Made by a program: the position numbers and the translations under genes
IMG/VR virus record: IMGVR_UViG_2526164688_000030
Direction: 5' to 3' (one strand)
From: a virus
Lineage: Duplodnaviria; Heunggongvirae; Uroviricota; Caudoviricetes
Length of the DNA: 11,137 nucleotides
Notes under the pieces: model-generated
Told to the model about the DNA's origin: nothing
Seen by the model: only the letters and a program-made list of their open reading frames with translations
Database searches by the model: none
Shown here: one piece after another, positions 1 to 11,137 of the stretch
How positions within the stretch are numbered: the first letter of the stretch is position 1
Layout of the letters: each line of letters starts with the position of its first letter

Positions 1-876
1 GGATGGGGAGTAAGCTTAGTCAGCCGTTGTCTCCGGGTGTCGCGTGCGCAGTTGCACGTCATTCTCAGACGAACCGATGACTGGATGGATGGCCGCCGCA
101 GTCGTCACACTGATGATACGGATGTGCTTCTCCGTATACACCATGTTATCGGAGAGCTGCCCACGTATGGTTATCGTCGGGTATGGGCGCTGCTTCGCAG
201 ACAGGCAGAACTTGATGGTATGCCTGCGATCAATGCCAAACGTGTTTACCGGATCATGCGCCAGAATGCGCTGTTGCTTGAGCGAAAACCTGCTGTACCG
301 CCATCGAAACGGGCACATACAGGCAGAGTGGCTGTGAAAGAAAGTAATCAGCGATGGTGCTCTGACGGGTTCGAGTTCCGCTGTGATAACGGAGAAAAAC
401 TGCGAGTCACGTTCGCGCTGGACTGCTGTGACCGTGAGGCACTGCACTGGGCGGTCACTACGGGCGGCTTCAACAGTGAAACAGTACAGGACGTCATGCT
501 GGGAGCGGTGGAACGCCGCTTCGGCAACGAGCTTCCGGCGTCTCCAGTAGAGTGGCTGACGGATAATGGTTCATGCTACCGGGCTAATGAAACACGGCAG
601 TTTGCCCGGATGTTGGGGCTTGAACCGAAGAGCACGGCGGTGCGGAGTCCGGAGAGTAACGGCATAGCAGAGAGCTTCGTGAAAACGATAAAGCGTGACT
701 ACATCAGTGTCATGCCCAAACCAGACGGGTTAACGGCAGCAAAGAACCTTGCAGAGGCGTTCGAGCATTATAACGAATGGCATCCGCATAGTGCACTGGG
801 TTATCGCTCGCCACGGGAATATCTACGGCAGCAAGCCAGTAATGGGTTAAGTGATAACAGGTGTCTGGAAATATAG
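1..876 (+). CDS. insD: IS2 transposase OrfB (InsD), 5'-truncated by the window edge; DDE/RNase H-fold integrase-type catalytic domain
   Basis: Frame 1 is open from base 1 ([20 protein letters not shown]...), continuing the 37..876 ORF upstream; stop TAG at 874-876. Sequence is characteristic of IS3-family OrfB. Confidence 0.88.
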
Positions 877-887
877 GGGCAAATCCA
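1..887 (+). mobile_element. IS2: IS2 insertion sequence, 3' portion (left end lies outside the window); right terminus ...TGGAAATATAGGGGCAAATCCA ends at 887
   Basis: Encoded protein matches recalled IS2 InsD over its whole visible length; terminal sequence at 866-887 matches the IS2 right inverted repeat as I recall it. Coding frame is open from base 1, so the element continues upstream of the window. Confidence 0.88.
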
Positions 888-959
888 GTTCGTAAAATTG
901 GTGGAATCCGTTTTCCTTTGCTGGCAGTCCGTGCTTATTATGCGTCCAGTATAGCTATT

Positions 960-2342
960 ATGACATCGCAAGGGACGTGGGTTAGTGCTTTAGAACGCCT
1001 AGAGCGTGCGCTTAGGCTGTGTTGTTTTTTTCGAAAGCATACTGATTTCAGGGATGAATTTGATCAGCTTTCGGCACATCTACTAGCAGAGTATGAACGT
1101 ACCAGAGAACAAGGCGATTCACCTTATCCGCTGCGACTCCTGCAACTCGATATCGACTGTAAAGTGAGTGAGCCATCTTTTATTGCCCAGGAACTCCTGT
1201 TTCTGACAAAAAACTATCTGGCTCAAAAATTATTTTCATTTGCCGTCGATGCCTGTAAAACCGCAATCCCGATTGCGAATAGGTGCTGTGACAGAGATAC
1301 ACAGTTTGAATTCTGGCGGCTTCTTGCCGATACACATCTGGAAGAGTCAAAATTCCAAGATGGCGGTATGATTTCGGCAGCCTGCATGCAGAATGCTATT
1401 GAAGCACTGGCTAATATTCCAGGAACCCGAATAGAACGTCTTGCGCTGTATGAAGAAATGCGTGATTACCAAATCGAATCCCGTCACCAGATGTCTATCC
1501 TTCAGTCTCCCCCTCAAGATATTAGTGAGATTGTCCATCAAGCCAAGAGTCGGGTAGTCGGAAGAGATTTGTTTGATATGGTTTTCAGACTTGCGATGCT
1601 GGTCTGTCGGCCAACCAGCATTGAGAGACTTAAGGCTCAAGCAATAGAACAAAAGGCCAACAGCATAGCTTGGATGTTTGGATCAACACATATTGATCAT
1701 GAGGGAATGACACTTGCTCGCATACCCGCAGGATTGGGGATTGATGATGCAAATGGGGCAGTTATTTGGCCCATAATGATGACGAGAATGCGTATCGACC
1801 ATGAGTTGGCAGTAGCTGGGCAAATTATTCCTGCTACAGATGAGATCACAATGAAATATCCAATCTCGGAGGCGTTTTTTCGCGATATGTTCATCAATCA
1901 TCCCTTCATCCCGTTTGGGCATGAAGAGTTTTTCATCAAGGGTATGGTTTGCGGTTTCAATGGAGATTTTATGACGGCATGCCACGTGTTGATTCCCCAG
2001 ATCGAAAATAGTCTGAGATATGTGGCTAAAATTAAAGGTGAGGAACCATCGCAGCTTCACGGGGACGGTTCGCAAGAGCGAAATGGACTCAAGGGATTAC
2101 TAGATAATCCACTGATTATTGAAGCTTTCGGCGTAGACATAATTGGCAATCTTCAGGCCTTACTGGTAGATAAAATCTATGGTGATTTACGAAATCAACT
2201 AGCTCACGGATATGTGCCTGCCGGTTACTACAATCAACCTCCCTGCATTTTTGCATGGTGGCTTGTATTGCACATTCTAATGAACCCTACGGCGAGATAC
2301 TGGCAAGCCACTTATGGCCAAGAGAGTGAGGCTCAGACTTAA
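960..2342 (+). CDS. Hypothetical cargo protein (~460 aa from ATG 960; ORF open from 858) with C-terminal R-x4-H motif (DLRNQLAHG) suggesting a HEPN-like RNase domain; candidate abortive-infection/defence protein
   Basis: Long uninterrupted ORF with stop at 2340-2342. Start is uncertain: the frame is open across the IS2 boundary (GTG 861 lies inside IS2), ATG 960 is the first ATG after IS2 but has no clear SD, TTG 918 is an alternative. The R-N-x-x-x-H motif near the C-terminus is read directly. Convergent with flanking phage genes; not a recognisable lambdoid function. Confidence 0.55.
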   Translation: MTSQGTWVSALERLERALRLCCFFRKHTDFRDEFDQLSAHLLAEYERTREQGDSPYPLRLLQLDIDCKVSEPSFIAQELLFLTKNYLAQKLFSFAVDACKTAIPIANRCCDRDTQFEFWRLLADTHLEESKFQDGGMISAACMQNAIEALANIPGTRIERLALYEEMRDYQIESRHQMSILQSPPQDISEIVHQAKSRVVGRDLFDMVFRLAMLVCRPTSIERLKAQAIEQKANSIAWMFGSTHIDHEGMTLARIPAGLGIDDANGAVIWPIMMTRMRIDHELAVAGQIIPATDEITMKYPISEAFFRDMFINHPFIPFGHEEFFIKGMVCGFNGDFMTACHVLIPQIENSLRYVAKIKGEEPSQLHGDGSQERNGLKGLLDNPLIIEAFGVDIIGNLQALLVDKIYGDLRNQLAHGYVPAGYYNQPPCIFAWWLVLHILMNPTARYWQATYGQESEAQT

Positions 2343-2439
2343 AGTGAATAAGTTTACGAAGTTGGCACTTCCGGATGCATGTCCATATGAGTTGAGGCGA
2401 TTTGGTTAATAAGGTTGAGTGCTGCTGAAATTATTCGAT

Positions 2440-2463
2440 GTCCGCTTTTGGCACAAAGCGGAC
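2440..2463. terminator. Perfect 9-bp inverted repeat GTCCGCTTT-(TGGCAC)-AAAGCGGAC between convergent genes; possible bidirectional terminator or protein-binding palindrome
   Basis: Arms 2440-2448 and 2455-2463 are exact reverse complements; located in the 218-bp gap between the + strand cargo gene and the - strand 133-aa gene. No clean U-tract follows on either strand. Confidence 0.3.
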
Positions 2464-2560
2464 AACCACGCCAGATCTACCCTGTGCCATGAAAAATGAG
2501 AATGTCAATTCACTCCTGAACTAATGCTTTTTAATCTAGTAACGTCTAAAATACCTAACA

Positions 2561-2962
2561 TTATCCCTGATAAAATGCCAGTATGCGCTGCATAACTTCA
2601 CTCATCCGGCACTCGCGACAGATTATGTTTAGGCGACTGTCGTAGCGACGTATTTCTCCATCAGGTAACGACCAGATAAGGTCCGGATCAACCACAGCTG
2701 TTTTCTTCACCTTTGCCCTCGAGAGTTTTTTGCGGGCGTTTTGCCAGTCCTTACGCGCCTGTTCAGACGGGAATAACCCGTAGCCGGAGTTGTATACATC
2801 GCCACTGGCTACCAGCTCTCTGGCAAGAACGCTCATCAGATATCTAGTCGCACCTGTTTTAGCTTCCAGTTGCCGTAACGTCTCACGACCGCTCTGGCGC
2901 ACGAGTTCCACCACCTGCCCTTTAATTTTTTCCCGCTCTTCTTGTGTAAAAACTTTTGCCAC
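2561..2962 (-). CDS. Hypothetical phage early-right protein (133 aa), function unknown
   Basis: GTG start at 2962 preceded by a strong SD (AAGGGGGA, short 3-nt spacer) on the minus strand; lies 40 nt downstream of the replication gene in the same orientation. Confidence 0.6.
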   Translation of the reverse strand: MAKVFTQEEREKIKGQVVELVRQSGRETLRQLEAKTGATRYLMSVLARELVASGDVYNSGYGLFPSEQARKDWQNARKKLSRAKVKKTAVVDPDLIWSLPDGEIRRYDSRLNIICRECRMSEVMQRILAFYQG

Positions 2963-3002
2963 AAGTCCCCCTTAAAATTACCTCATGACCTGAAATCAAA
3001 AC

Positions 3003-3968
3003 TTATCCTCTGAAACCAGGCGGAATTTCTGTATCCGGTTCAGAAATATGATTAACACAACGCTGTACAGGTGAACGCCCCAGGCGGATGACCAGTTCGT
3101 CCCATTTTTCGCGGAGCTTTGACGGGCTCATGATGTTTTTTACCCAGAATGGATCCCGCTGTACCCGACCAAACATTTCACAAATTTGTCTGTGGCTTCT
3201 GCCATCCAGCATCCGCATTGTGCGCACATCATTGGCCCAGACAGTCCAGTTAGGCTCTTTTGGTCGCATGATCTCGCCATCATCACTGGCGGCCTGTTCG
3301 TAGAGACCCACGATCCGCCCCCATATCCACTGCGCACACGCCAGATCCTCCTGGCTACCCCACTGGCGTTTTTTCGCACTAAACACAACTGCGCCAGGGT
3401 GCCGGATTAAAAAATCCTGTTCAGCCGTCTGCGGGTCCGGTTGCGAAGCTTCCGGACGAAAAGTGTTTTTATTCTCTGTAGTAATCTCTGTTGTATTCTC
3501 TGTAGGATCATCGGGCCATTTTGACCCGATGACATTGGGTCGTTTTGAACCAATGGAGCGTTTCATTTTGACCTCTTCCATCGTGTCATTTTGACCTGAT
3601 GGAGCGGCGCATTTTGAACCGATGGATTCGCTCAATTTGCCATCATCTAAAAGCTCGCTCCCATAGTTAATCGTGTAGAAATTGGTCATATCGCGCTTTG
3701 ATTTATTGAGCTTTTCACAACGCAAAAGCCCCAGCGTTTTCAGACTTGCAAACGCGCGCTTTAACGTTGACTCTGACCAGAATGGGAACTGTTCCAGCCA
3801 TTGTTCCGTTGTGTTGTAAATCCAGCGAACACCATCACATTCCATGCCGGAATTGGTATCTCTCAACCAGTAATGCAACTGCTGCAACACAATGGCTTCA
3901 TTTAAGCCAATCTTCATCGCAAGCTGTGTGTTTATAACCAGTGGGCGTTCAGCAAAAAGAAGGCTCAT
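3003..3968 (-). CDS. Putative phage replication initiation protein (lambda O-like role; N-terminal winged-helix-like region, C-terminal DnaT-like region); contains the iteron array
   Basis: ORF 3003..4022 (TTG at 4022); the more likely start is ATG 3968 with GGATGG 5-7 nt upstream, overlapping the upstream gene by 20 nt. Position downstream of the Cro-like gene and internal iterons (protein repeats SIGSK...SIGSK...VIGSK) match lambdoid O-gene architecture. Family assignment is from recollection, not a search. Confidence 0.7.
   Translation of the reverse strand: MSLLFAERPLVINTQLAMKIGLNEAIVLQQLHYWLRDTNSGMECDGVRWIYNTTEQWLEQFPFWSESTLKRAFASLKTLGLLRCEKLNKSKRDMTNFYTINYGSELLDDGKLSESIGSKCAAPSGQNDTMEEVKMKRSIGSKRPNVIGSKWPDDPTENTTEITTENKNTFRPEASQPDPQTAEQDFLIRHPGAVVFSAKKRQWGSQEDLACAQWIWGRIVGLYEQAASDDGEIMRPKEPNWTVWANDVRTMRMLDGRSHRQICEMFGRVQRDPFWVKNIMSPSKLREKWDELVIRLGRSPVQRCVNHISEPDTEIPPGFRG
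3470..3505. repeat. Three tandem 12-bp direct repeats (TATTCTCTGTAG / TAATCTCTGTTG / TATTCTCTGTAG) adjacent to the iteron array
   Basis: Read directly; encodes the TENTTEITTENK repeat in the replication protein. Sits immediately promoter-distal of the iterons, where lambdoid origins carry their A/T-rich unwinding region. Confidence 0.5.
3517..3647. repeat. Iteron array: six direct repeats of ~CATTTTGA(A/C)C(N)GATGG at a regular 23-bp period; putative prophage origin of replication inside the initiator gene
   Basis: Copies begin at 3517, 3541, 3564, 3587, 3610 and a degenerate one at 3633, all read directly from the sequence. Confidence 0.6.
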
Positions 3969-4470
3969 AATTCCATCCAGCTTTTTGTTGGTATTGCTGT
4001 CGATACGCAAGTTTGAAAGCAATTGCTTTTTCTATAAGTTCGTCAGTTTCACGATCCACTACGGCAGGATCAGCAAAAAGCAGTCCGGACTCCACCACAT
4101 CGCCATATTCTTTGTTTAACCCGGCGATCATGTACGTGATGCTTTTTCCGTCACTAATTTCACGATACAACCTGAAATCATTAATCCGGATAGCCTCCAT
4201 AATTGCAGGCACTAGCGCCGTGAACTTTTCACGCTTATCCCTGGTGTCGATAGCCTTCCAGCGTTCGAATATCTTCACTCGATTAACGCCAAGCGCTCGC
4301 TGATCAACCGCGCCACCTTCATCTGTGACACGCTGAACATCGATGTTCGGGCGCTCTTTCAAAGCCCAGAATGCTTCAGTGATTAATATCGTCGCCTGCT
4401 CCTGTGTCATTCCTGGTCGACATATCCAGGCATCCAGAGCCTCACGAGCCTGTTCAGGAGTGATTTTCAT
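3949..4470 (-). CDS. Hypothetical early-right protein (173 aa) in the cII/YdaT-like position between the Cro-like gene and the replication gene
   Basis: ATG at 4470 with G-rich SD (GGGGCGG) ~7 nt upstream; overlaps the dicC-like stop by 17 nt and the replication gene start by 20 nt (translational coupling). No confident family recognition. Confidence 0.6.
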   Translation of the reverse strand: MKITPEQAREALDAWICRPGMTQEQATILITEAFWALKERPNIDVQRVTDEGGAVDQRALGVNRVKIFERWKAIDTRDKREKFTALVPAIMEAIRINDFRLYREISDGKSITYMIAGLNKEYGDVVESGLLFADPAVVDRETDELIEKAIAFKLAYRQQYQQKAGWNYEPSFC

Positions 4471-4681
4471 TGTTCAACCGCCCCGCCCGCTTCGTCTTAC
4501 GATATTCGTCATAAACCTTGGGATCATACAGAAGCTCCCCGCCAGATGCCTCCTGTAGACGCATCGCGCGACCTTCAGGAACCAGTATCCCCCAAGCAGC
4601 AACACTTGCCAGTCTCACTCCTGCGGCATTGGCAAGCTTTGTTTTGCTGCCAAAAAAAGTAATTGCGTCAACTTTAAGCAT
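4454..4681 (-). CDS. dicC: DicC-like Cro-type small DNA-binding regulator (75 aa)
   Basis: ATG at 4681 with strong SD (AGAGGGGG, 5-nt spacer); protein (MLKVDAITFFGSKTKLANAAGVRLASVAAWG...RLQEASGGELLYDPKVYDEYRKTKRAGRLNNENHS) closely resembles recalled E. coli Qin DicC; divergent from the dicA-like gene. Confidence 0.8.
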   Translation of the reverse strand: MLKVDAITFFGSKTKLANAAGVRLASVAAWGILVPEGRAMRLQEASGGELLYDPKVYDEYRKTKRAGRLNNENHS

Positions 4682-4694
4682 CAAAGCCCCCTCT

Positions 4695-4712
4695 TGTTAG
4701 ACTTTTCTAACA
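4695..4712. promoter_or_regulatory. Operator-like palindrome TGTTAGA-cttt-TCTAACA in the dicC/dicA divergent promoter region (putative DicA/DicC binding site)
   Basis: 7-bp perfect inverted arms 4695-4701 / 4706-4712; overlaps the dicC RBS/promoter region; a near-identical palindrome recurs at 5205-5224. Confidence 0.5.
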
Positions 4713-4761
4713 TTATTGTGCGCGGGATATCTAAGTCAAGAAAAATTAGAATTACCTAACT

Positions 4762-5169
4762 ATGGATACAAGAACCCTAGGCCAGCGAGTTCTGGCGCGA
4801 CGAAAAGAATTACGCTTAACACAACGAGAAGCTGCGCGCCTCGCTGGAGTTGCTCACGTCACAATTTCACAATGGGAAAGAGACGAAACCCAGCCAGTCG
4901 GAAAACGATTGTTTGCTTTAGCGGATGCTCTGAAGTGCTCACCTACATGGCTAATGTTTGGTGACGAAGACAAGGCACCAGTGCCTGCACAAGAACTTCA
5001 TGTGGAAACAGAGCTAACTCCCAACCACAAAGAATTGATCGAATTATTCGATGCTCTTCCATCTTCCGAGCAGGAAGCCTTGCTGTCTGAAATGCGCGCA
5101 AGAGTAGAAAACTTCAACAAACTCTTCGAAGAAATGCTTAAAGCGCGTAAAAATAAATCAATAAAATAA
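4762..5169 (+). CDS. dicA: DicA-like HTH (XRE/P22 C2-type) prophage repressor, 135 aa
   Basis: N-terminal HTH (LRLTQREAARLAGVAHVTISQWERDETQPVGKRLFALADALKCSPTWLMFGDEDK) and C-terminal block (ELIELFDALPSSEQEALLSEMRARVENFNKLFEEMLKAR) closely resemble recalled K-12 DicA; divergent from the Cro-like gene. Confidence 0.85.
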   Translation: MDTRTLGQRVLARRKELRLTQREAARLAGVAHVTISQWERDETQPVGKRLFALADALKCSPTWLMFGDEDKAPVPAQELHVETELTPNHKELIELFDALPSSEQEALLSEMRARVENFNKLFEEMLKARKNKSIK

Positions 5170-5204
5170 CATTCTTTTCAAGTGATTAGTTGCGCCCACT
5201 CTTT

Positions 5205-5224
5205 TTGTTAGACCAATCTAACAA
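5205..5224. promoter_or_regulatory. Second operator palindrome TTGTTAGA-ccaa-TCTAACAA, between dicA and ydfA-like; putative operator of the dicB-operon promoter
   Basis: 8-bp perfect inverted arms 5205-5212 / 5217-5224; 36 nt after the dicA stop and ~114 nt before the ydfA-like ATG. Confidence 0.5.
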
Positions 5225-5337
5225 AAAACACTTGCCTATCATGTTAGGTTATTCTAAATTACTTTCCATCAAGACACCGCACGGTGTTCTCAGCAAACAG
5301 TTCCGCTACCCCGGCGTTAAGGGGAAATGAGGTCAGC

Positions 5338-5493
5338 ATGGATACTATCGATCTTGGCAACAGCGAATCTCTGGTATGTGGCGTGTTCCCCAACCAGGAC
5401 GGCACGTTCACCGCGATGACGTATACCAAAAGCAAAACGTTTAAAACCGAAAATGGTGCCCGTCGCTGGCTGGAAAGAAACTCAGGTGAGTGA
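5338..5493 (+). CDS. ydfA: YdfA/YdaF-like small protein (51 aa) of the dicB operon
   Basis: ATG 5338 with purine-rich SD (GAGGT); protein MDTIDLGNSESLVCGVFPNQDGTFTAMTYTKSKTFKTENGARRWLERNSGE matches recalled Qin YdfA; stop TGA at 5491-5493. Confidence 0.75.
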   Translation: MDTIDLGNSESLVCGVFPNQDGTFTAMTYTKSKTFKTENGARRWLERNSGE

Positions 5494-5494
5494 T

Positions 5495-6070
5495 ATGGAT
5501 TTCGACACAATCATGGAAAAGGCTTACGAAGAATACTTCGAAGGCCTTGCCGAAGGCGAAGAAGCTCTCAGCTTCAGTGAGTTTAAACAGGCACTCAGAA
5601 TAAGAATGTGCTCTCACAATGACGCGGAGCACAAATATGAGAAGCAAAATCAGACCGCAGAAAATTTTGTTCTGGAACCCGGAGAAACGCTTTTCAAAAT
5701 TCCCGTTACGTGCCCCATTTGCGGTTTTACATCAGAAGAACTTGACGACTCCTGTAACAATCAGGAAACAACCAAGTATGTCGAAGATGATACCGAGTGC
5801 GCACGAAGAACGATTATATCCACGAGTCCAAACTCCAGGGCCAATAAATCTCACTTTGAGAGGGTGATTAATCCACTCCCCCAAACCAATAAAAAAGATG
5901 CCGGAGGACAAAAAACCCAATGGAACAACGGGATATCTGTCAAAAAAAGACGTTCCATTAAAGACAAACAACGCAGCGCCAACAACTGTAAGCGCTTTAT
6001 ACCAGTAATCAATTTTCATGTTCTTAAGCGGATTTATTGGTGGTTGCGACATTGCTTAATGAATCCTTAA
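5495..6070 (+). CDS. ydfB: YdfB-like protein; N-terminus MDFDTIMEKAYEEYFEGLAEGEEALSFSEFKQAL; ORF stays open for 191 codons but the C-terminal extent is uncertain
   Basis: ATG 5495 is 1 nt after the ydfA stop with SD CAGGTGAG. N-terminal ~35 aa match recalled YdfB. The K/R/N-rich 3' half and rare codons suggest the distal part may be an antisense shadow of the minus-strand ORF 5732..6052. Confidence 0.45.
   Translation: MDFDTIMEKAYEEYFEGLAEGEEALSFSEFKQALRIRMCSHNDAEHKYEKQNQTAENFVLEPGETLFKIPVTCPICGFTSEELDDSCNNQETTKYVEDDTECARRTIISTSPNSRANKSHFERVINPLPQTNKKDAGGQKTQWNNGISVKKRRSIKDKQRSANNCKRFIPVINFHVLKRIYWWLRHCLMNP
5732..6052 (-). CDS. Candidate small membrane protein (106 aa, about three predicted TM segments) antisense to the 3' half of the ydfB-like ORF
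   Basis: ATG at 6052; translation has three hydrophobic stretches (ALTVVGAALFVF, VVPLGFLSSGIFFIGLG, ALGIIFDILGCFLIVTGVV). Only a weak SD (GGA 13 nt upstream). Cannot be resolved against the overlapping plus-strand ORF from sequence alone. Confidence 0.3.
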   Translation of the reverse strand: MSQPPINPLKNMKIDYWYKALTVVGAALFVFNGTSFFDRYPVVPLGFLSSGIFFIGLGEWINHPLKVRFIGPGVWTRGYNRSSCALGIIFDILGCFLIVTGVVKFF

Positions 6071-6091
6071 AACTGTGGTGATTTTAAGGAT
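6063..6091. other. Perfect 10-bp inverted repeat ATCCTTAAAA-(ctgtggtga)-TTTTAAGGAT
   Basis: Arms 6063-6072 / 6082-6091; overlaps the stop of the plus ORF and lies just upstream of the minus-strand ORF start; candidate RNA hairpin or palindromic binding site. Confidence 0.35.
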
Positions 6092-6329
6092 ACCACCTCG
6101 CCTGACGTGGTTAAAAGCAGGCACACAACACGAAAGCGCACGGCGAAGTTCGTCTCACTGTACGGTGTCGTTAAATTTAATTCGACCGTGCGCTTCCGGT
6201 TGTGGCAACCCGCAAAATGGCGCGGCGGTAAGTATGGCGGGGTTATTCCTTCCCCGTTGAGGACACCGGGTTGTCAGGTTGACCATACGCTTAAGTGACA
6301 ACCCCGCTGCAACGCCCTCTGTTATCAAT

Positions 6330-6387
6330 TTTCTGGTGACGTTTGGCGGTATCAGTTTTACTCCGTGACTGCTCTGCCGCCGTTTTT
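6330..6387 (+). ncRNA. dicF: DicF small regulatory RNA (Hfq-dependent sRNA processed from the dicB-operon transcript; ftsZ antisense regulator)
   Basis: TTTCTGGTGACGTTTGGCGGTATCAGTTTTACTCCGTGACTGCTCTGCCGCCGTTTTT matches recalled E. coli DicF almost base-for-base, with 3' GC-rich stem plus U-tract, in the expected position between ydfB/C-like and dicB. Confidence 0.8.
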
Positions 6388-6556
6388 AAAGTGAATTTTG
6401 TTATGCGGTGAATGCGGCTAAGCGCACGCGGAACAGTTAAAACCAAAAACAGTGTTATGGGTGGATTCTCTGTATCCGACGTTAATTGTTAACTGGTTAA
6501 CGTCACCTGGAGGCACCAGGCACTGCATCACAAAATTTATTGTTGAGGACGCGATA

Positions 6557-6745
6557 ATGAAAACGTTATTACCAAACGTTAATACGTCTGAAGGTTGTTT
6601 TGAAATTGGTGTCACTATCAGTAACCCTGTATTTACTGAAGATGCCATTAACAAGAGAAAACAAGAACGGGAGCTATTAAATAAAATATGCATTGTTTCA
6701 ATGCTGGCTCGTTTACGTCTGATGCCAAAAGGATGTGCACAATGA
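6557..6745 (+). CDS. dicB: DicB cell-division inhibitor (62 aa; MinC-dependent in E. coli)
   Basis: ATG 6557 with SD GAGGA (7-nt spacer); protein MKTLLPNVNTSEGCFEIGVTISNPVFTEDAINKRKQERELLNKICIVSMLARLRLMPKGCAQ matches recalled Qin DicB; stop TGA at 6743-6745. Confidence 0.85.
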   Translation: MKTLLPNVNTSEGCFEIGVTISNPVFTEDAINKRKQERELLNKICIVSMLARLRLMPKGCAQ

Positions 6746-6933
6746 ATTCAGCATTTGCGCTTGTTCTGACAGTTTTTCTTGTTTCCGGAGTGCCAGTTGA
6801 TATTGCAGTCAGTGTTCACAGGACAATGCAGGAGTGTATGACTGCAGCAACCGAACAGAAAATTCCCGGTAACTGTTACCCGGTCGATAAAGTTATTAAC
6901 CAGGATAATATCGAAATCTCGGCAGGTCTTTAA
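6742..6933 (+). CDS. ydfD: YdfD-like small membrane protein (63 aa; reported lysis protein in E. coli)
   Basis: ATG 6742 overlaps the dicB stop (ATGA); N-terminal hydrophobic segment MNSAFALVLTVFLVSGVPV; matches recalled Qin YdfD. Confidence 0.75.
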   Translation: MNSAFALVLTVFLVSGVPVDIAVSVHRTMQECMTAATEQKIPGNCYPVDKVINQDNIEISAGL

Positions 6934-7026
6934 AACAGTTCCGTAATAAATATCCGGTTTCATTCTTATATGCCAGCAATGGCAGGGATTTGTTCATCCT
7001 TAAATCTGTCATGAGGTTAAAACAAA

Positions 7027-9498
7027 ATGAGTAAAGTCTTTATTTGCGCCGCTATTCCTGACGAACTGGCAACAAGGGAAGAAGGCGCTGTGGCTGTAGC
7101 CACAGCCATTGAAGCTGGCGACGAACGCCGTGCTCGAGCAAAATTTCACTGGCAATTCCTGGAACATTATCCGGCTGCTCAGGACTGCGCTTATAAATTT
7201 ATTGTCTGCGAGGATAAACCTGGCATACCCCGCCCTGCCCTCGATTCATGGGATGCTGAATATATGCAGGAAAACCGCTGGGATGAGGAGTCTGCTTCTT
7301 TTGTCCCGAATGAGACTGAATCCGATCCGATGAACGTCACTTTTGACAAGCTGGCCCCTGAAGTACAGAACGCTGTCATGGTTAAGTTCGACACATGTGA
7401 AAACATCACCGTTGATATGGTTATTAGCGCACAGGAATTGTTGCAGGAAGACATGGCAACATTCGACGGACATATCGTTGAAGCGTTGATGAAAATGCCA
7501 GAAGTTAACGCCATGTATCCGGAGCTTAAGTTGCACGCCATTGGGTGGGTTAAGCATAAATGTATTCCTGGTGCTAAATGGCCCGAAATTCAGGCAGAGA
7601 TGCGCATCTGGAAAAAACGTCGCGAAGGTGAACGCAAGGAAACCGGAAAATACACGTCTGTTGTTGATCTCGCACGCGCCAGAGCCAATCAACCGTACAC
7701 TGAAAATTCAACAGGAAAAATCAGCCCGGTCATTGCTGCCATTCATCGCGAATACAAGCAGACATGGAAAACACTGGATGACGAACTGGCCTACGCTCTC
7801 TGGCCTGGTGATGTGGATGCCGGAAACATTGACGGCAGCATCCATCGCTGGGCAAAAAAAGAAGTTATCGACAACGACCGCGAAGACTGGAAGCGTATCT
7901 CGGCATCAATGCGCAAACAGCCTGATGCCCTTCGCTACGACCGCCAGACTATTTTTGGCCTTGTCCGTGAGCGTCCGATCGACATTCACAAAGATCCCGT
8001 AGCACTGAACAAATATATCTGCGAATACCTGACGACAAAGGGCGTGTTTGAGAATGAAGAAACAGACCTGGGCACTGTTGATGTTCTCCAGTCATCAGAA
8101 ACACAAACTGATGCAGTGGAAACTGAGGTATCTGATATCCCAAAAAATGAAACCGCGCCGGAAGCTGAACCATCTGTAGAGCGTGAGGGGCCGTTCTATT
8201 TCCTCTTCGCAGATAAGGACGGAGAAAAATACGGTCGCGCAAACAAACTTTCTGGTCTGGATAAGGCACTGGCTGCTGGCGCCACTGAAATCACAAAAGA
8301 AGAATATTTTGCCCGAAAAAATGGCACATACACGGGCTTACCGCAAAATGTAGATACCGCTGAAGATTCAGAACAACCAGAGCCGATAAAAGTTACCGCT
8401 GACGAAGTAAACAAAATTATGCAGGCAGCCAATATCAGCCAGCCTGACGCCGATAAGTTGCTTGCTGCCTCTCGCGGAGAATTTGTTGCAGGGATTAGCG
8501 ACCCGAATGATCCGAAATGGGTTAAGGGGATCCAGACCCGCGATTCTGTAAACCAGAACCAGCATGAATCGGAACGGAACTACCAAAAAGCGGAACAAAA
8601 CAGCCCAAATGCGTTACAAAACGAGCCAGAAACGAAACAGCCTGAACCAGTGGCGCAACAGGAAGTGGAAAAAGTCTGCACCGCCTGCGGTCAGACCGGC
8701 GGCGGCAACTGCCCTGATTGTGGCGCGGTGATGGGCGACGCAACATACCAGGAAACATTCGATGAAGAGTATCAGGTTGAAGTTCAGGAAGATGATCCGG
8801 AGAAAATGGAAGGCGCTGAACATCCACACAAGGAGAACACTGGCGGCAATCAGCATCATGCCAGCGATAATGAAACTGGCGAGACGGCAGATCACTCAAT
8901 TAAGGTGAACGGTCATCAAGAAATCACATCCACCAGCAGGACGTGTGACCATCTAATGATCGACCTTGAAACCATGGGAAAAAATCCTGATGCCCCGATC
9001 ATCTCAATAGGTGCAATATTTTTCGATCCGCAAACCGGAGATATGGGACCGGAATTTAGTAAGACTATCGATCTGGAAACTGCTGGCGGAGTCATTGATC
9101 GGGACACCATTAAATGGTGGCTTAAGCAATCACGCGAAGCGCAATCTGCCATTATGACCGATGAAATCCCGTTAGATGATGCACTGTTACAATTGCGGGA
9201 ATTTATCGACGAAAACTCCGGTGAATTTTTTGTTCAGGTCTGGGGAAATGGAGCCAACTTCGACAACACGATTTTGCGCCGTTCATACGAACGGCAGGGG
9301 ATCCCCTGCCCGTGGCGTTACTACAACGATCGCGATGTACGCACAATCGTTGAGCTGGGGAAAGCCATAGACTTCGATGCCAGAACGGCTATTCCATTCG
9401 AAGGTGAGCGCCATAATGCACTTGATGACGCCCGTTACCAGGCAAAATACGTTTCAGTTATCTGGCAAAAACTGATCCCGAGTCAGGCTGATTCTTAA
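7027..9498 (+). CDS. ydfE: Full-length YdfE-like large early-left protein (823 aa): N-terminal domain of unknown function, central Cys4 zinc ribbon (CTACGQTGGGNCPDCG), C-terminal DnaQ-like DEDDh 3'-5' exonuclease domain
   Basis: ATG 7027 with SD GAGGT. The three DEDDh motifs are read directly: MIDLETMG (Exo I), WGNGANFDNTIL (Exo II), HNALDDARYQ (Exo III). The N-terminus matches the recalled K-12 YdfE fragment. Sits where lambdoid phages carry recombination/exonuclease genes, upstream of xis-int. Confidence 0.85.
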   Translation: MSKVFICAAIPDELATREEGAVAVATAIEAGDERRARAKFHWQFLEHYPAAQDCAYKFIVCEDKPGIPRPALDSWDAEYMQENRWDEESASFVPNETESDPMNVTFDKLAPEVQNAVMVKFDTCENITVDMVISAQELLQEDMATFDGHIVEALMKMPEVNAMYPELKLHAIGWVKHKCIPGAKWPEIQAEMRIWKKRREGERKETGKYTSVVDLARARANQPYTENSTGKISPVIAAIHREYKQTWKTLDDELAYALWPGDVDAGNIDGSIHRWAKKEVIDNDREDWKRISASMRKQPDALRYDRQTIFGLVRERPIDIHKDPVALNKYICEYLTTKGVFENEETDLGTVDVLQSSETQTDAVETEVSDIPKNETAPEAEPSVEREGPFYFLFADKDGEKYGRANKLSGLDKALAAGATEITKEEYFARKNGTYTGLPQNVDTAEDSEQPEPIKVTADEVNKIMQAANISQPDADKLLAASRGEFVAGISDPNDPKWVKGIQTRDSVNQNQHESERNYQKAEQNSPNALQNEPETKQPEPVAQQEVEKVCTACGQTGGGNCPDCGAVMGDATYQETFDEEYQVEVQEDDPEKMEGAEHPHKENTGGNQHHASDNETGETADHSIKVNGHQEITSTSRTCDHLMIDLETMGKNPDAPIISIGAIFFDPQTGDMGPEFSKTIDLETAGGVIDRDTIKWWLKQSREAQSAIMTDEIPLDDALLQLREFIDENSGEFFVQVWGNGANFDNTILRRSYERQGIPCPWRYYNDRDVRTIVELGKAIDFDARTAIPFEGERHNALDDARYQAKYVSVIWQKLIPSQADS

Positions 9499-9509
9499 TG
9501 TTCAACTGT

Positions 9510-9541
9510 CGCCGGTTGTGACTGGTATTCTGCAACCGGCG
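9510..9541 (+). other. 9-bp perfect inverted repeat CGCCGGTTG-(14 nt)-CAACCGGCG between the ydfE-like gene and xis; possible attenuator/processing hairpin
   Basis: Arms 9510-9518 / 9533-9541, 12 nt after the upstream stop codon; no U-tract, so not a canonical intrinsic terminator. Confidence 0.3.
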
Positions 9542-9570
9542 CTCGTCTGATGTAAGAGATAAAGAAATCG

Positions 9571-9822
9571 ATGAGCGAAGTAATCATGATTGTCTCTCCC
9601 GGCAAATGGGTATCCGAAGAGCAGTTAATTGCGCTGAAAGGAATAAAAAAAGGTACGTTAAAAAAGGCCCGGGAAAAATCGTTTATGGAAGGAAGGGAAT
9701 ATAAGCATGTCGCTCATGACGGTATGCCATGGGATAACAGTCCATGCTTTTACAACCTGGAAGAAATTGATCGCTGGATTGAGCGCCAGGCATCAGCGAG
9801 ACCAAGACGTCATCTTACTTGA
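9571..9822 (+). CDS. xis: Putative excisionase (Xis-like small DNA-binding protein, 83 aa) immediately upstream of int
   Basis: Small basic protein adjacent to and co-oriented with the integrase; resembles lambdoid/cryptic-prophage excisionase-like proteins. ATG 9571 has only a weak SD; ATG 9586 is an alternative start. Confidence 0.65.
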   Translation: MSEVIMIVSPGKWVSEEQLIALKGIKKGTLKKAREKSFMEGREYKHVAHDGMPWDNSPCFYNLEEIDRWIERQASARPRRHLT

Positions 9823-9856
9823 CTAAAAGCCACACTAACTAATGAGAGAAGTTGAA

Positions 9857-11137
9857 ATGAAATATCCGACAGGCGTGGAAAACCATGGAGGGAAATTACG
9901 TATCTGGTTTGTTTATAAAGGCGTAAGAGTCAGGGAAAATCTGGGGGTTCCTGACACAGCAAAAAACAGGCGCGTTGCAGGTGAACTACGCTCCTCTGTT
10001 TGTTACGCAATAAAAACTGGTGTTTTCGACTATGCAAAACAGTTTCCCTCCTCACGCAATCTGGAAAAATTTGGTGAGGCCCGACAAGATTTAACCATAA
10101 AAGAACTGGCTGAAAAATTTCTGGCACTGAAAGAAACTGAAGTCGCCAAAACATCACTCAACACATACCGTGCCGTCATCAAAAATATCCTGAGCATAAT
10201 CGGTGAAAAAAATCTTGCCTCATCGATTAATAAAGAAAAATTACTGGAGGTTCGTAAAGAGTTACTGACTGGATACCAGATCCCCAAAAGTAACTATATT
10301 GTTACACAACCAGGGAGATCGGCTGTAACTGTAAATAATTACATGACAAATCTTAACGCCGTGTTCCAGTTTGGTGTTGATAACGGTTACCTGGCAGATA
10401 ATCCGTTTAAGGGGATCTCGCCATTAAAGGAATCAAGAACCATTCCGGATCCTCTTTCGCGGGAAGAATTTATCCGTCTTATCGATGCGTGCAGAAATCA
10501 GCAAGCAAAAAATTTATGGTGTGTTTCTGTTTATACTGGCGTTCGCCCTGGTGAGCTGTGTGCACTTGGATGGGAGGACGTAGATCTGAAAAATGGAACA
10601 ATGATGATCAGGAGAAATTTAGCAAAAGACCGTTTCACGGTACCAAAAACACAGGCGGGAACCAATCGGGTCATTCATCTTATTAAGCCAGCAATCGACG
10701 CTCTCCGGAGTCAGATGACATTAACGAGACTGAGCAAAGAGCATATCATTGATGTTCACCTCAGAGAGTATGGCAGAACAGAAAAACAAAAATGCACCTT
10801 TGTTTTTCAACCTGAAGTGTCAGCGAGAGTAAAAAATTATGGTGACCATTTTACCGTTGACTCAATAAGGCAGATGTGGGACGCAGCGATAAAACGTGCC
10901 GGACTCCGCCATCGAAAATCATATCAGTCGAGACATACTTATGCCTGCTGGTCGCTGACAGCTGGTGCTAACCCGGCATTTATAGCAAACCAGATGGGCC
11001 ATGCAGATGCGCAAATGGTATTTCAGGTATACGGAAAATGGATGTCTGAAAACAATAATGCACAGGTAGCTTTGTTAAATACACAGTTAAGCGAGTTTGC
11101 CCCAACCATGCCCCATAACGAAGCAATGAAAAATTAA
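9857..11137 (+). CDS. int: Tyrosine site-specific integrase with N-terminal arm-binding domain (GVENHGGKLRIWFVYKGVRVRE) and C-terminal catalytic domain (R...HxxR...Y)
   Basis: Most likely start is ATG 9857 (SD GAGAGAAG, 5-nt spacer) rather than ATG 9842. C-terminal motifs RHTYACW, GHADAQMVFQVYGKW and the catalytic Tyr region are typical of phage integrases. Stop TAA is the last three bases of the window. Confidence 0.9.
   Translation: MKYPTGVENHGGKLRIWFVYKGVRVRENLGVPDTAKNRRVAGELRSSVCYAIKTGVFDYAKQFPSSRNLEKFGEARQDLTIKELAEKFLALKETEVAKTSLNTYRAVIKNILSIIGEKNLASSINKEKLLEVRKELLTGYQIPKSNYIVTQPGRSAVTVNNYMTNLNAVFQFGVDNGYLADNPFKGISPLKESRTIPDPLSREEFIRLIDACRNQQAKNLWCVSVYTGVRPGELCALGWEDVDLKNGTMMIRRNLAKDRFTVPKTQAGTNRVIHLIKPAIDALRSQMTLTRLSKEHIIDVHLREYGRTEKQKCTFVFQPEVSARVKNYGDHFTVDSIRQMWDAAIKRAGLRHRKSYQSRHTYACWSLTAGANPAFIANQMGHADAQMVFQVYGKWMSENNNAQVALLNTQLSEFAPTMPHNEAMKN

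Follow-up and report, generated by a model that had tools for sequence, protein, structure and literature searches.

An IS2 insertion splits a prophage-borne HEPN gene of Escherichia coli DEC9A and probably leaves a null allele

Insertional inactivation by IS2, an element of the IS3 family, follows a copy-out/paste-in route and leaves a 5-bp target duplication. By the ISfinder convention, copies with at least 95% nucleotide identity are regarded as isoforms of IS2. The right inverted repeat (IRR) is 41 bp long, and its -35 element builds the promoter Pjunc on the IS2 minicircle, whereas the own promoter of IS2 is weak and OrfA-repressed and production of OrfAB requires a frameshift (PMC3299598). 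Fusion promoters formed by IS2 have been described for ampC, acrEF, and neoR, whereby in the ampC case (Jaurin and Normark 1983), in the account given by PMC9330008, the IS2 -35 landed 17 bp from a resident -10. The gene that is hit by IS2 in the present case belongs to PADLOC family PDC-S39, bacterial C6orf70/ERMARD-type HEPN proteins with the Pfam domains DUF7380 and DUF4209, the latter of which has been placed in the HEPN superfamily (PMC3710099).

The window, the whole stretch of 11,137 nucleotides that was analyzed, corresponds to draft contig AIGK01000032.1 of E. coli DEC9A, which starts inside an IS2 element (Table 1). As a reference we used the 1331-bp IS2 copy of DEC9B, the ends of which are set by its own target duplication and which is named IS2 by PGAP. 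Window 1-887 aligns to the last 887 nt of this copy without gaps and with 27 mismatches (97.0% identity), within the range of IS2 isoforms, and many E. coli genomes carry IS2 copies that are 100% identical to the window variant. The alignment terminates at 887, just where the initial annotation had placed the IS2 terminus, with the tip ...GGGGCAAATCCA (window 876-887). The opposite end lies on the neighbouring DEC9A contig AIGK01000031.1 (here L006), where the left inverted repeat (IRL) runs from position 10339 with the tip TAGACTGGCCCC... and where the start of orfA with HTH_Tnp_1 was found; the domains rve and rve_3 were assigned to the ORF in the window. The 187 nt of IS2 between both contigs are unassembled and represent the expected place of the -1 frameshift site that joins orfA and orfB. 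In the draft assembly the two contigs are not physically linked through one IS2.

Table 1. Coordinates of IS2 and target gene features in the window.
Feature	Position	Strand	Basis or remark
IS2 isoform, 3' part, nt 445-1331 (887 nt)	1..887	+	alignment to DEC9B IS2
IS2 right inverted repeat IRR, 41 bp	847..887, outer tip 887	+	DEC9B copy and empty-site reconstruction
TAA closing frame 0	855..857	+	frame across junction open only from 858
GTG, in frame inside IRR, 27 nt from IS2 tip	861..863	+	ATG here in canonical IS2
TGGAAA, inferred outward-facing -35 of IRR	866..871	+	17-bp spacer / 1-bp junction rule (PMC3299598)
orfB (transposase catalytic part)	to TAG 874-876	+	Pfam HTH_21, rve, rve_3 on ORF
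GTTCG, right copy of 5-bp target-site duplication	888..892	+	codon 112 plus two bases of codon 113
Gene 3' fragment, codons 112-595 plus stop (WP_000340969.1; PADLOC PDC-S39)	888..2342	+	match to ATCC 25922
ATG, internal Met136 of native protein, not a start codon	960..962	+	no SD
RNQLAH, Rx4H HEPN catalytic motif (R546, H551)	2190..2207	+	intact in 3' fragment

The neighbouring contig holds the missing 5' part of the gene. Its end reads ...TGGGTTCG followed by TAGACTGGCCCC, with the left junction ...CACTTTGGGTTCG joined to TAGACTGGCCCCCTGA..., and a GTTCG copy stands directly before IRL (TAGACTGG...) at L006 10334-10338. GTTCG at the right end had been proposed as one copy of a target duplication, and its partner is thus in place. 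When the two flanks are joined, they rebuild the empty site base for base. The matching left junction on the neighbouring contig therefore indicates a simple transposition with the 5-bp duplication GTTCG. The 117-aa stub predicted from this junction is identical to database protein WP_000340971.1, and none of five alternative left junctions (duplications of 0, 3, 4, 6, or 7 bp) yielded an exact database protein. Accessions for both gene halves are paired in the same three assemblies, and the same right junction is present in the independent assembly GCA_050054375.1 (L005). Of the 150 complete E. coli genomes with this locus, 149 have no interruption at the site, and none of 5,426 complete E. 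coli genomes searched by megablast contains the junction. The only apparent full match, DEC9B, was discarded, as it consists of two pieces 380 bp apart and represents a different IS2 insertion. An exact search with the 29-nt junction gave no match in a contig collection with one genome per species and is hence uninformative. Only short repeats at chance level were detected in window 1-3000.

In order to decide between an insertion into a longer gene and one into a promoter region, both of which the initial annotation had considered, we aligned the IS2-free alleles across the site, as it had suggested. In these alleles, which comprise ATCC 25922 and 148 further complete genomes, the ORF begins 333 nt upstream of window 888 and encodes a 595-aa protein, whereby the native ATG is preceded by the Shine-Dalgarno (SD) sequence AAGGTGA. 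The coding sequence of the IS-free allele spans 3668-5455 of L002, and window 888 equals L002 4001 in the identical frame. Thus, IS2 lies inside the 5' part of a longer gene, the gene starts well before ATG960, and the insertion removes the first 111 codons from the 3' fragment, which shows 0 mismatches to ATCC 25922 over 1513 nt.

In the intact protein, an N-terminal DUF7380 domain is followed by a TPR-like helical array and, at the C-terminus, by a DUF4209 HEPN domain (predicted RNase). In the intact allele both Pfam domains score above the gathering score, DUF7380 at residues 4-166 (118.6 bits, E=3e-34) and DUF4209 at residues 484-573 (33.9 bits), so that IS2 splits DUF7380; the window fragment retains DUF4209 only, and DUF7380 is not detected in it. 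In the HEPN catalytic motif of the Rx4-6H type (RNQLAH, residues 546-551), R546 and H551 show no variation among 61 homologues. Searches for the gene product yielded no NCBIfam match and no relative in the PDB by sequence, and a literature search on DUF7380 returned nothing. The suggestion that this is a candidate defence gene is supported by the match of the intact allele to the PDC-S39 profile (E=2e-102), of which the window holds a split copy. A defence function as such is unproven, as the family is only a defence candidate in the literature found, where no experimental paper deals with its RNase activity or with phage protection.

In the best reading of these data, one IS2 copy transposed into the coding sequence of this stand-alone prophage gene in DEC9A. 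It entered codon 113 after the second base, duplicated GTTCG, and left two gene pieces 1331 bp apart. The first piece encodes an N-terminal stub of 117 aa (residues 1-113 plus RLAP from the left end of IS2) and still lies behind the native upstream region and the native Shine-Dalgarno sequence. The second is a promoter-less 3' fragment for residues 112-595, beginning at window 888. The reading frame, open from 858 as had been noted before and ending at TAA 2340-2342, is the native frame preceded by 30 nt of IS2 in which no stop happens to occur. The chance of ten codons without a stop is about 60% ((61/64)^10), and the open 30 nt in IS2 (858-887) are thus not significant.

The cut falls directly after the near-invariant motif A104-R105-x2-D108-x2-W111, the four residues of which are at least 90% conserved in the 61 homologues. 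Alignments to homologues with 33-39% identity run straight through the cut, and all 61 aligned homologues carry 96-126 residues before it. Among the homologues that align from the start of the fragment, taken from the best 150 of 2,992 family representatives, none begins at the cut. In the AF2 full-length model (pLDDT 94.4, pTM 0.85) the cut lies at the end of helix 100-112, within the helical array. Three points make the DEC9A allele a probable loss-of-function (null) allele: a near-invariant motif and the remainder of one compact fold are separated, none of the homologues compared has its natural start at the cut, and neither a usable promoter nor a usable ribosome-binding site is available at the junction. 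Overall, we are highly confident that a single IS2 transposed into the coding sequence of the 595-aa HEPN gene and left a split, probably null allele. As judged from the 3' fragment, which is 100% identical to intact alleles, the insertion looks recent. By the same token, the fragment displays no decay that would confirm a dead gene.

Two other explanations of the junction were considered. Instead of a simple insertion, it could reflect an artefact of assembly or an inversion or deletion by IS2-IS2 recombination, in line with a contig that begins in a multi-copy IS, gene halves on separate contigs, and the unassembled part of IS2. However, recombination between different IS2 copies would leave flanks that do not match, whereas the 5-bp duplication is identical on both sides and the two flanks together restore the empty site. 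Together with the reciprocal left junction, the identical junction in the independent assembly argues against an artefact, as do the joint recurrence of both halves in three assemblies, the consecutive contig numbers (31, 32), and the complementary prophage content. We therefore regard this explanation as extremely improbable. It is almost inconceivable that IS2 sits in the promoter or leader, with the real gene start at ATG960 or at GTG861 as annotated. This reading draws on the local picture only, in which 960 is the first ATG and the ORF called by gene prediction is 493 aa long and starts at 861, and it is refuted by the 333 further coding nucleotides with a good SD in IS-free alleles, by the span of DUF7380 over the cut, and by the conservation of the upstream part in distant homologues, whereby ATG960 becomes an internal codon. 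An insertion in the promoter region is thus excluded for the window; it does apply to the separate IS2 copy of DEC9B.

A further question is whether IS2 has re-wired expression through a hybrid outward promoter, as the initial annotation had envisaged, and drives an N-terminally truncated HEPN protein as a deregulated or altered effector. Such a product would comprise residues 112-595 plus nine IS2-encoded residues, or begin at Met136, and its transcription could be driven by a hybrid IRR promoter or arrive by read-through, either from IS2 or from the native promoter. In favor of this, the outward -35 of IRR faces the fragment, fusion promoters and Pjunc are known from IS2 elsewhere (PMC9330008; PMC3299598), the frame is open over the junction with GTG861 in frame, the HEPN motif is intact, and AF2 models the fragment alone at a pLDDT of 94.9, although AF2 confidence for a fragment is no indicator of its stability. 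However, the hexamers at 16, 17, and 18 bp from TGGAAA (GTTCGT, TTCGTA, TCGTAA) match TATAAT at 1-2 of 6 positions and are not -10-like. The nearest good -10, TAAAAT at 893-898, is 21 bp from the inferred -35, the best plus-strand promoter combinations reach 7-8 of 12 matches with off-optimal spacers, and the plus strand of window 700-1200 contains no sigma-70 consensus. No convincing ribosome-binding site was found either. In-frame starts before 1200 are GTG861, TTG918, ATG960, and GTG1164. GTG861, which overlaps the end of orfB and is the annotated start of the 493-aa ORF EHW38751.1/WP_001429192.1, has a weak SD (anti-SD duplex -3.1 kcal/mol, near background), and at TTG918 the sequence GGTGGA is present but 12 nt away. 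For ATG960, the duplex energy of +0.7 kcal/mol, compared with a median of -2.2 in the window and -4.1 at the native start, bears out the earlier remark that this first in-frame ATG is without a clear SD. Coupling to orfB would be rare, since the IS2 promoter is weak and OrfA-repressed and OrfAB depends on frameshifting. Given also the loss of the near-invariant motif and the lack of a natural short form among the homologues compared, we consider re-wiring very unlikely.

A terminator scan of window 700-1200 found none between IS2 and the fragment, and thus some read-through transcription and low-level translation of the fragment are conceivable. That read-through from the native promoter through IS2 and initiation at GTG861 produce a low-level truncated TPR-HEPN protein without the N-terminal module is hardly to be expected; if true, the insertion would have given rise to an altered and possibly deregulated effector rather than simply killing the gene. 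Upstream of the native gene and at its 3' end, scans for consensus promoters and terminators revealed nothing on the plus strand; a perfect TATAAT with a poor -35 was seen by eye about 150 bp upstream of the native ATG. For the polarity of IS2 in "orientation II" the literature search found nothing.

The split allele is also compatible with a reading that concerns the cause, namely that loss of a costly or self-toxic gene is selected, with recurrent hits to the gene in pathogenic lineages rich in IS elements. HEPN RNases are typical suicide effectors (PMC3710099), and four further lesions of the gene were identified: an independent canonical IS2 in DEC9B, 47 bp upstream of the gene ATG with the duplication CATTT; a 1310-bp IS3-family element at codon 414 in JNEC-KY202 with a 3-bp duplication; and deletions in LR-46 and A10 that each have an end within the gene. 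However, lesions in 4 of 150 complete genomes (~3%) plus the DEC9A lineage, a count confined to this gene, are not obviously above the rate for any accessory prophage gene in IS-rich strains, and both deletions take several kilobases of prophage, so that the gene need not be their target. Selection thus appears unlikely. As an extension of the improbable reading of a truncated effector, the insertions in DEC9A, DEC9B, and JNEC-KY202 could mark the gene as a recurrent target, a costly defence gene that is tuned or shut down by IS elements in pathogenic E. coli.

The importance of the locus lies mostly in annotation. The 493-aa product ("DUF4209 domain-containing") and the 117-aa WP_000340971.1 ("DUF7380 domain-containing") are halves of one IS2-split gene and should be treated as a pseudogene; defence censuses should therefore not count DEC9A-type strains as intact PDC-S39. 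Moreover, the intact allele of ATCC 25922, the promoter-separated one of DEC9B, and the split ones of DEC9A and JNEC-KY202 offer natural material for testing this HEPN family.

With the ampC fusion promoter and the minicircle Pjunc, the DEC9A locus shares the geometry of an outward -35 in IRR that points towards a downstream gene. In contrast to ampC, where by the account cited above IS2 lies in the promoter, the DEC9A element lies in the coding sequence, its flank has no -10 at 16-18 bp, and any product would lose 111 residues. From classical IS2 inactivation there is no difference of substance, whereby the target gene and the allele alone are undescribed in the literature searched. The window element is 97-100% identical to known copies, likewise has canonical tips at IRR and IRL, is flanked by a direct duplication of 5 bp, and splits a coding sequence. 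The event is an ordinary, probable gene knockout by a mobile element.

Among 5,426 complete E. coli genomes, 149 have a chromosomal locus 99–100% identical to the region behind the IS2 element (window 888–2400); the annotated gene there, for example in ATCC 25922, comprises 1788 nt and encodes 595 aa. The intact gene has its start codon 333 nt further upstream than the base matching window position 888, in the same frame and behind an AAGGTGA Shine-Dalgarno (SD) sequence; codon 112 begins at position 888, and ATG960 corresponds to Met136. A 300-bp probe with the insertion site at its centre matched 150 genomes and ran without interruption in 149 of them, the exception being a deletion, and the junction of DEC9A, the source strain of the window, was found in none of the 5,426 genomes. 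Since the IS-free alleles extend upstream in frame without interruption, IS2 lies within coding sequence. The initial annotation had placed the element either in the 5' part of a longer gene or in a promoter region; alignment of the IS-free alleles over the junction bears out the former and excludes the latter.

Its sequence observations, i.e., the IS2 end at 887, a frame open from 858 and an SD-less ATG960, are all correct. No statistical weight attaches to the 30 nt over which the frame is open within IS2, as about 60% of runs of ten codons would lack a stop. The 493-aa ORF starting at GTG861 exactly equals the database protein EHW38751.1 ("ECDEC9A_1991"). Canonical IS2 has ATG instead of this GTG, 27 nt from the tip of the right inverted repeat (IRR), with no stop before the element end, so that one in three insertions of the same orientation would have an open frame that starts in IS2 and runs on into the target.

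The reference was the 1331-bp IS2 copy in strain DEC9B, delimited at both ends by its own 5-bp duplication. The window copy aligned to it without gaps and with 27 mismatches up to ...GGGGCAAATCCA at 887; its ORF shows the domain set of an IS3-family transposase (HTH_21, rve, and rve_3), and many E. coli genomes contain copies 100% identical to this variant. Bases 1–11137 of AIGK01000032.1 from DEC9A (GCA_000249895.2), a contig beginning within IS2, are identical to the window. Draft contigs often begin inside IS elements. In order to characterize the left junction, the empty site was combined with the canonical IS2 left end, and the N-terminal stub was predicted for a 5-bp duplication and, as alternatives, for five other duplication lengths. 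The 5-bp stub (residues 1–113, then RLAP, then a stop) is present as the exact protein WP_000340971.1 (117 aa), whereas none of the five alternatives is. In DEC9A the stub is encoded at the end of the adjacent contig AIGK01000031.1, which reads ...GATACACTTTGGGTTCG directly followed by TAGACTGGCCCCCTGAATC... and then the start of IS2 orfA. Joined to window 893 onward, this left flank reproduces ATCC 25922 at every base. The target duplication GTTCG, initially a guess, is confirmed by this junction and the exactly rebuilt empty site, and the sequences on both sides show a simple transposition.

Coordinates of features of the IS2 junction, the interrupted gene and related loci
Feature	Position	Orientation	Remark
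IS2 3' part, last 887 nt	1–887		gap-free to DEC9B IS2
Stop TAA	855–857		closes frame 0
Frame-0 stop-free stretch	858 to stop at 2340–2342
Frame-0 start codons	GTG861, TTG918, ATG960, GTG1164		GTG861 within IS2
Inferred -35 TGGAAA	866–871
GTTCG	888–892		directly after IS2 end
-10-like TAAAAT	893–898
DUF7380 (Pfam)	residues 4–166		intact protein, E=3e-34
DUF4209 (Pfam)	residues 484–573		intact protein
Rx4H motif RNQLAH	residues 546–551; 2190–2207
DicF antisense sRNA	6331–6382	+	Rfam RF00039, 72.5 bits
dicB	6557–6745
823-aa protein	7027–9498	+	YdfE_N and YdfE_C regions
Excisionase, integrase	9857–11137		after 823-aa gene
Candidate native promoter TATAAT	ATCC 25922 locus 3515–3520 (DEC9A AIGK01000031.1 ~9850)		~150 bp upstream of native ATG
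Extra 3.3 kb	DEC9A AIGK01000031.1 locus 6025–9324		versus ATCC 25922, between hokD side and split gene
Independent canonical IS2	DEC9B (NZ_CP074760.1) locus 4798–6128	same as window	47 bp upstream of ATG, duplication CATTT
IS3-family element, 1310 bp	JNEC-KY202 (NZ_AP045178.1) locus 2942–4251	opposite	splits gene at codon 414
Deletion end	LR-46 locus ~5114		codon 99
Deletion end	A10 locus ~5243		codon 192

Three parts can be recognised in the intact protein: DUF7380, DUF4209 and the Rx4H motif. DUF4209 belongs to the HEPN superfamily of predicted RNases and, within it, to the C6orf70 family, which is fused to TPR repeats and has active bacterial members (PMC3710099). Over nearly its whole length the protein fits PDC-S39, a PADLOC defence candidate (E=2e-102); in the literature found, PDC-S39 appears as a prediction only, a literature search on DUF7380 yielded nothing, and a search by sequence found no solved relative. 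"Candidate defence gene" is thus a fair label for a role that is only predicted. A HMMER scan with the window fragment over 1.84 billion cluster representatives gave 2,992 relatives (397 at E<=1e-30). Across 61 of them aligned together, R546 and H551 never vary, conservation of A104, R105, D108, and W111 is 90% or more, and each of the 61 has 96–126 residues before the cut point. The N-terminal motif ARIADxLW ends exactly at the IS2 cut, homologues of 33–39% identity align continuously through it, and among the best 150 of the 2,992 representatives none of those whose alignment covers the fragment start has its own beginning at that point. Distant DUF4209 relatives (22–24% identity over the C-terminal 55–60%) occur in the P2-like phages AM157366.1 (P2-EC46) and ON470601.1 (vB_EcoM-569R9), one of them in a short database entry for a fragment of the P2 variable region from ECOR46.

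That the junction is an assembly artefact or a rearrangement is hardly credible: recombination between different IS2 copies would give unmatched flanks, whereas the 5-bp duplication matches on both sides, the junction recurs in the independent assembly GCA_050054375.1, and both gene halves occur as paired accessions in the same three assemblies. The idea that IS2 has re-wired expression, initially raised with a hybrid outward promoter in mind, so that a truncated HEPN protein is made, finds no positive support and is improbable as well, albeit somewhat less so. The IRR faces the 3' fragment, and the -35 comes from it both in the minicircle promoter Pjunc and in known IS2 fusion promoters (PMC9330008, PMC3299598), so the window shares their geometry. 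Yet the hexamers of Pjunc, which arises with a 1-bp junction, must be exactly 17 bp apart (PMC3299598), from which TGGAAA would be the -35, and the hexamers 16–18 bp beyond it (GTTCGT, TTCGTA, TCGTAA) are not -10-like; the sole good candidate, TAAAAT, is 21 bp away. A promoter consensus scan of the + strand around the junction found nothing. No terminator-like site was seen in the scanned region, so read-through from the native promoter or IS2 could reach the fragment, but translation would have to use one of three poor starts: GTG861, with a background-level SD and overlapping the end of the rarely translated orfB; TTG918, with an SD-like GGTGGA 12 nt away; or ATG960, whose SD pairing is essentially nil (+0.7 kcal/mol; the window median is -2.2, and the native start reaches -4.1).

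As a candidate native promoter we saw only a perfect TATAAT whose -35 is poor (CAGCCA at 17 bp) and which falls below the scan threshold. The DEC9B IS2 parts this TATAAT from an intact gene, i.e., the promoter-region scenario in a strain other than that of the window. The JNEC-KY202 element, presumably IS629-like by its size, has a 3-bp duplication and an annotated AL1L frameshift pseudoknot, and the LR-46 and A10 deletions join the gene to the dicB region with loss of the prophage replication and immunity module. These four further lesions might suggest that loss of the gene was selected, but they amount to about 3% of alleles, and we consider selection rather unlikely.

The prophage around the gene is lambdoid and Qin-like. 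Within it the gene (~45% G+C versus ~55% for IS2) has no neighbour on its own strand; upstream it is flanked by hokD or other prophage genes, and downstream by a DUF977 gene and the replication module. DicF, adjoining dicB and ydfD, marks the prophage as Qin-like, and the element adjoins rspB. The 823-aa protein ends in an Rv2179c-like 3'-5' exoribonuclease domain (E=2e-67; weak PADLOC DEDDh match). The extra DEC9A DNA contains relE/relB, a 101-aa ORF, flxA, and a 446-aa transposase gene, and so marks the entry of a second mobile element ~750 bp upstream of the gene.

Overall, the allele is very probably a split one: IS2 transposed into the coding sequence, duplicating GTTCG and parting the native upstream region, SD and codons 1–113 from the 3' fragment by 1331 bp. 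With somewhat less confidence, the split allele is most probably null. The 3' fragment carries no mutations relative to intact alleles, so the insertion appears recent and sequence decay is no evidence either way. The components are already annotated in public databases, with the two halves entered as separate proteins; the practical value lies in pseudogene annotation, and the natural allele set provides material for testing an uncharacterised HEPN defence candidate. With its split coding sequence and 5-bp duplication, the case is the same as classical, textbook IS2 insertional inactivation.
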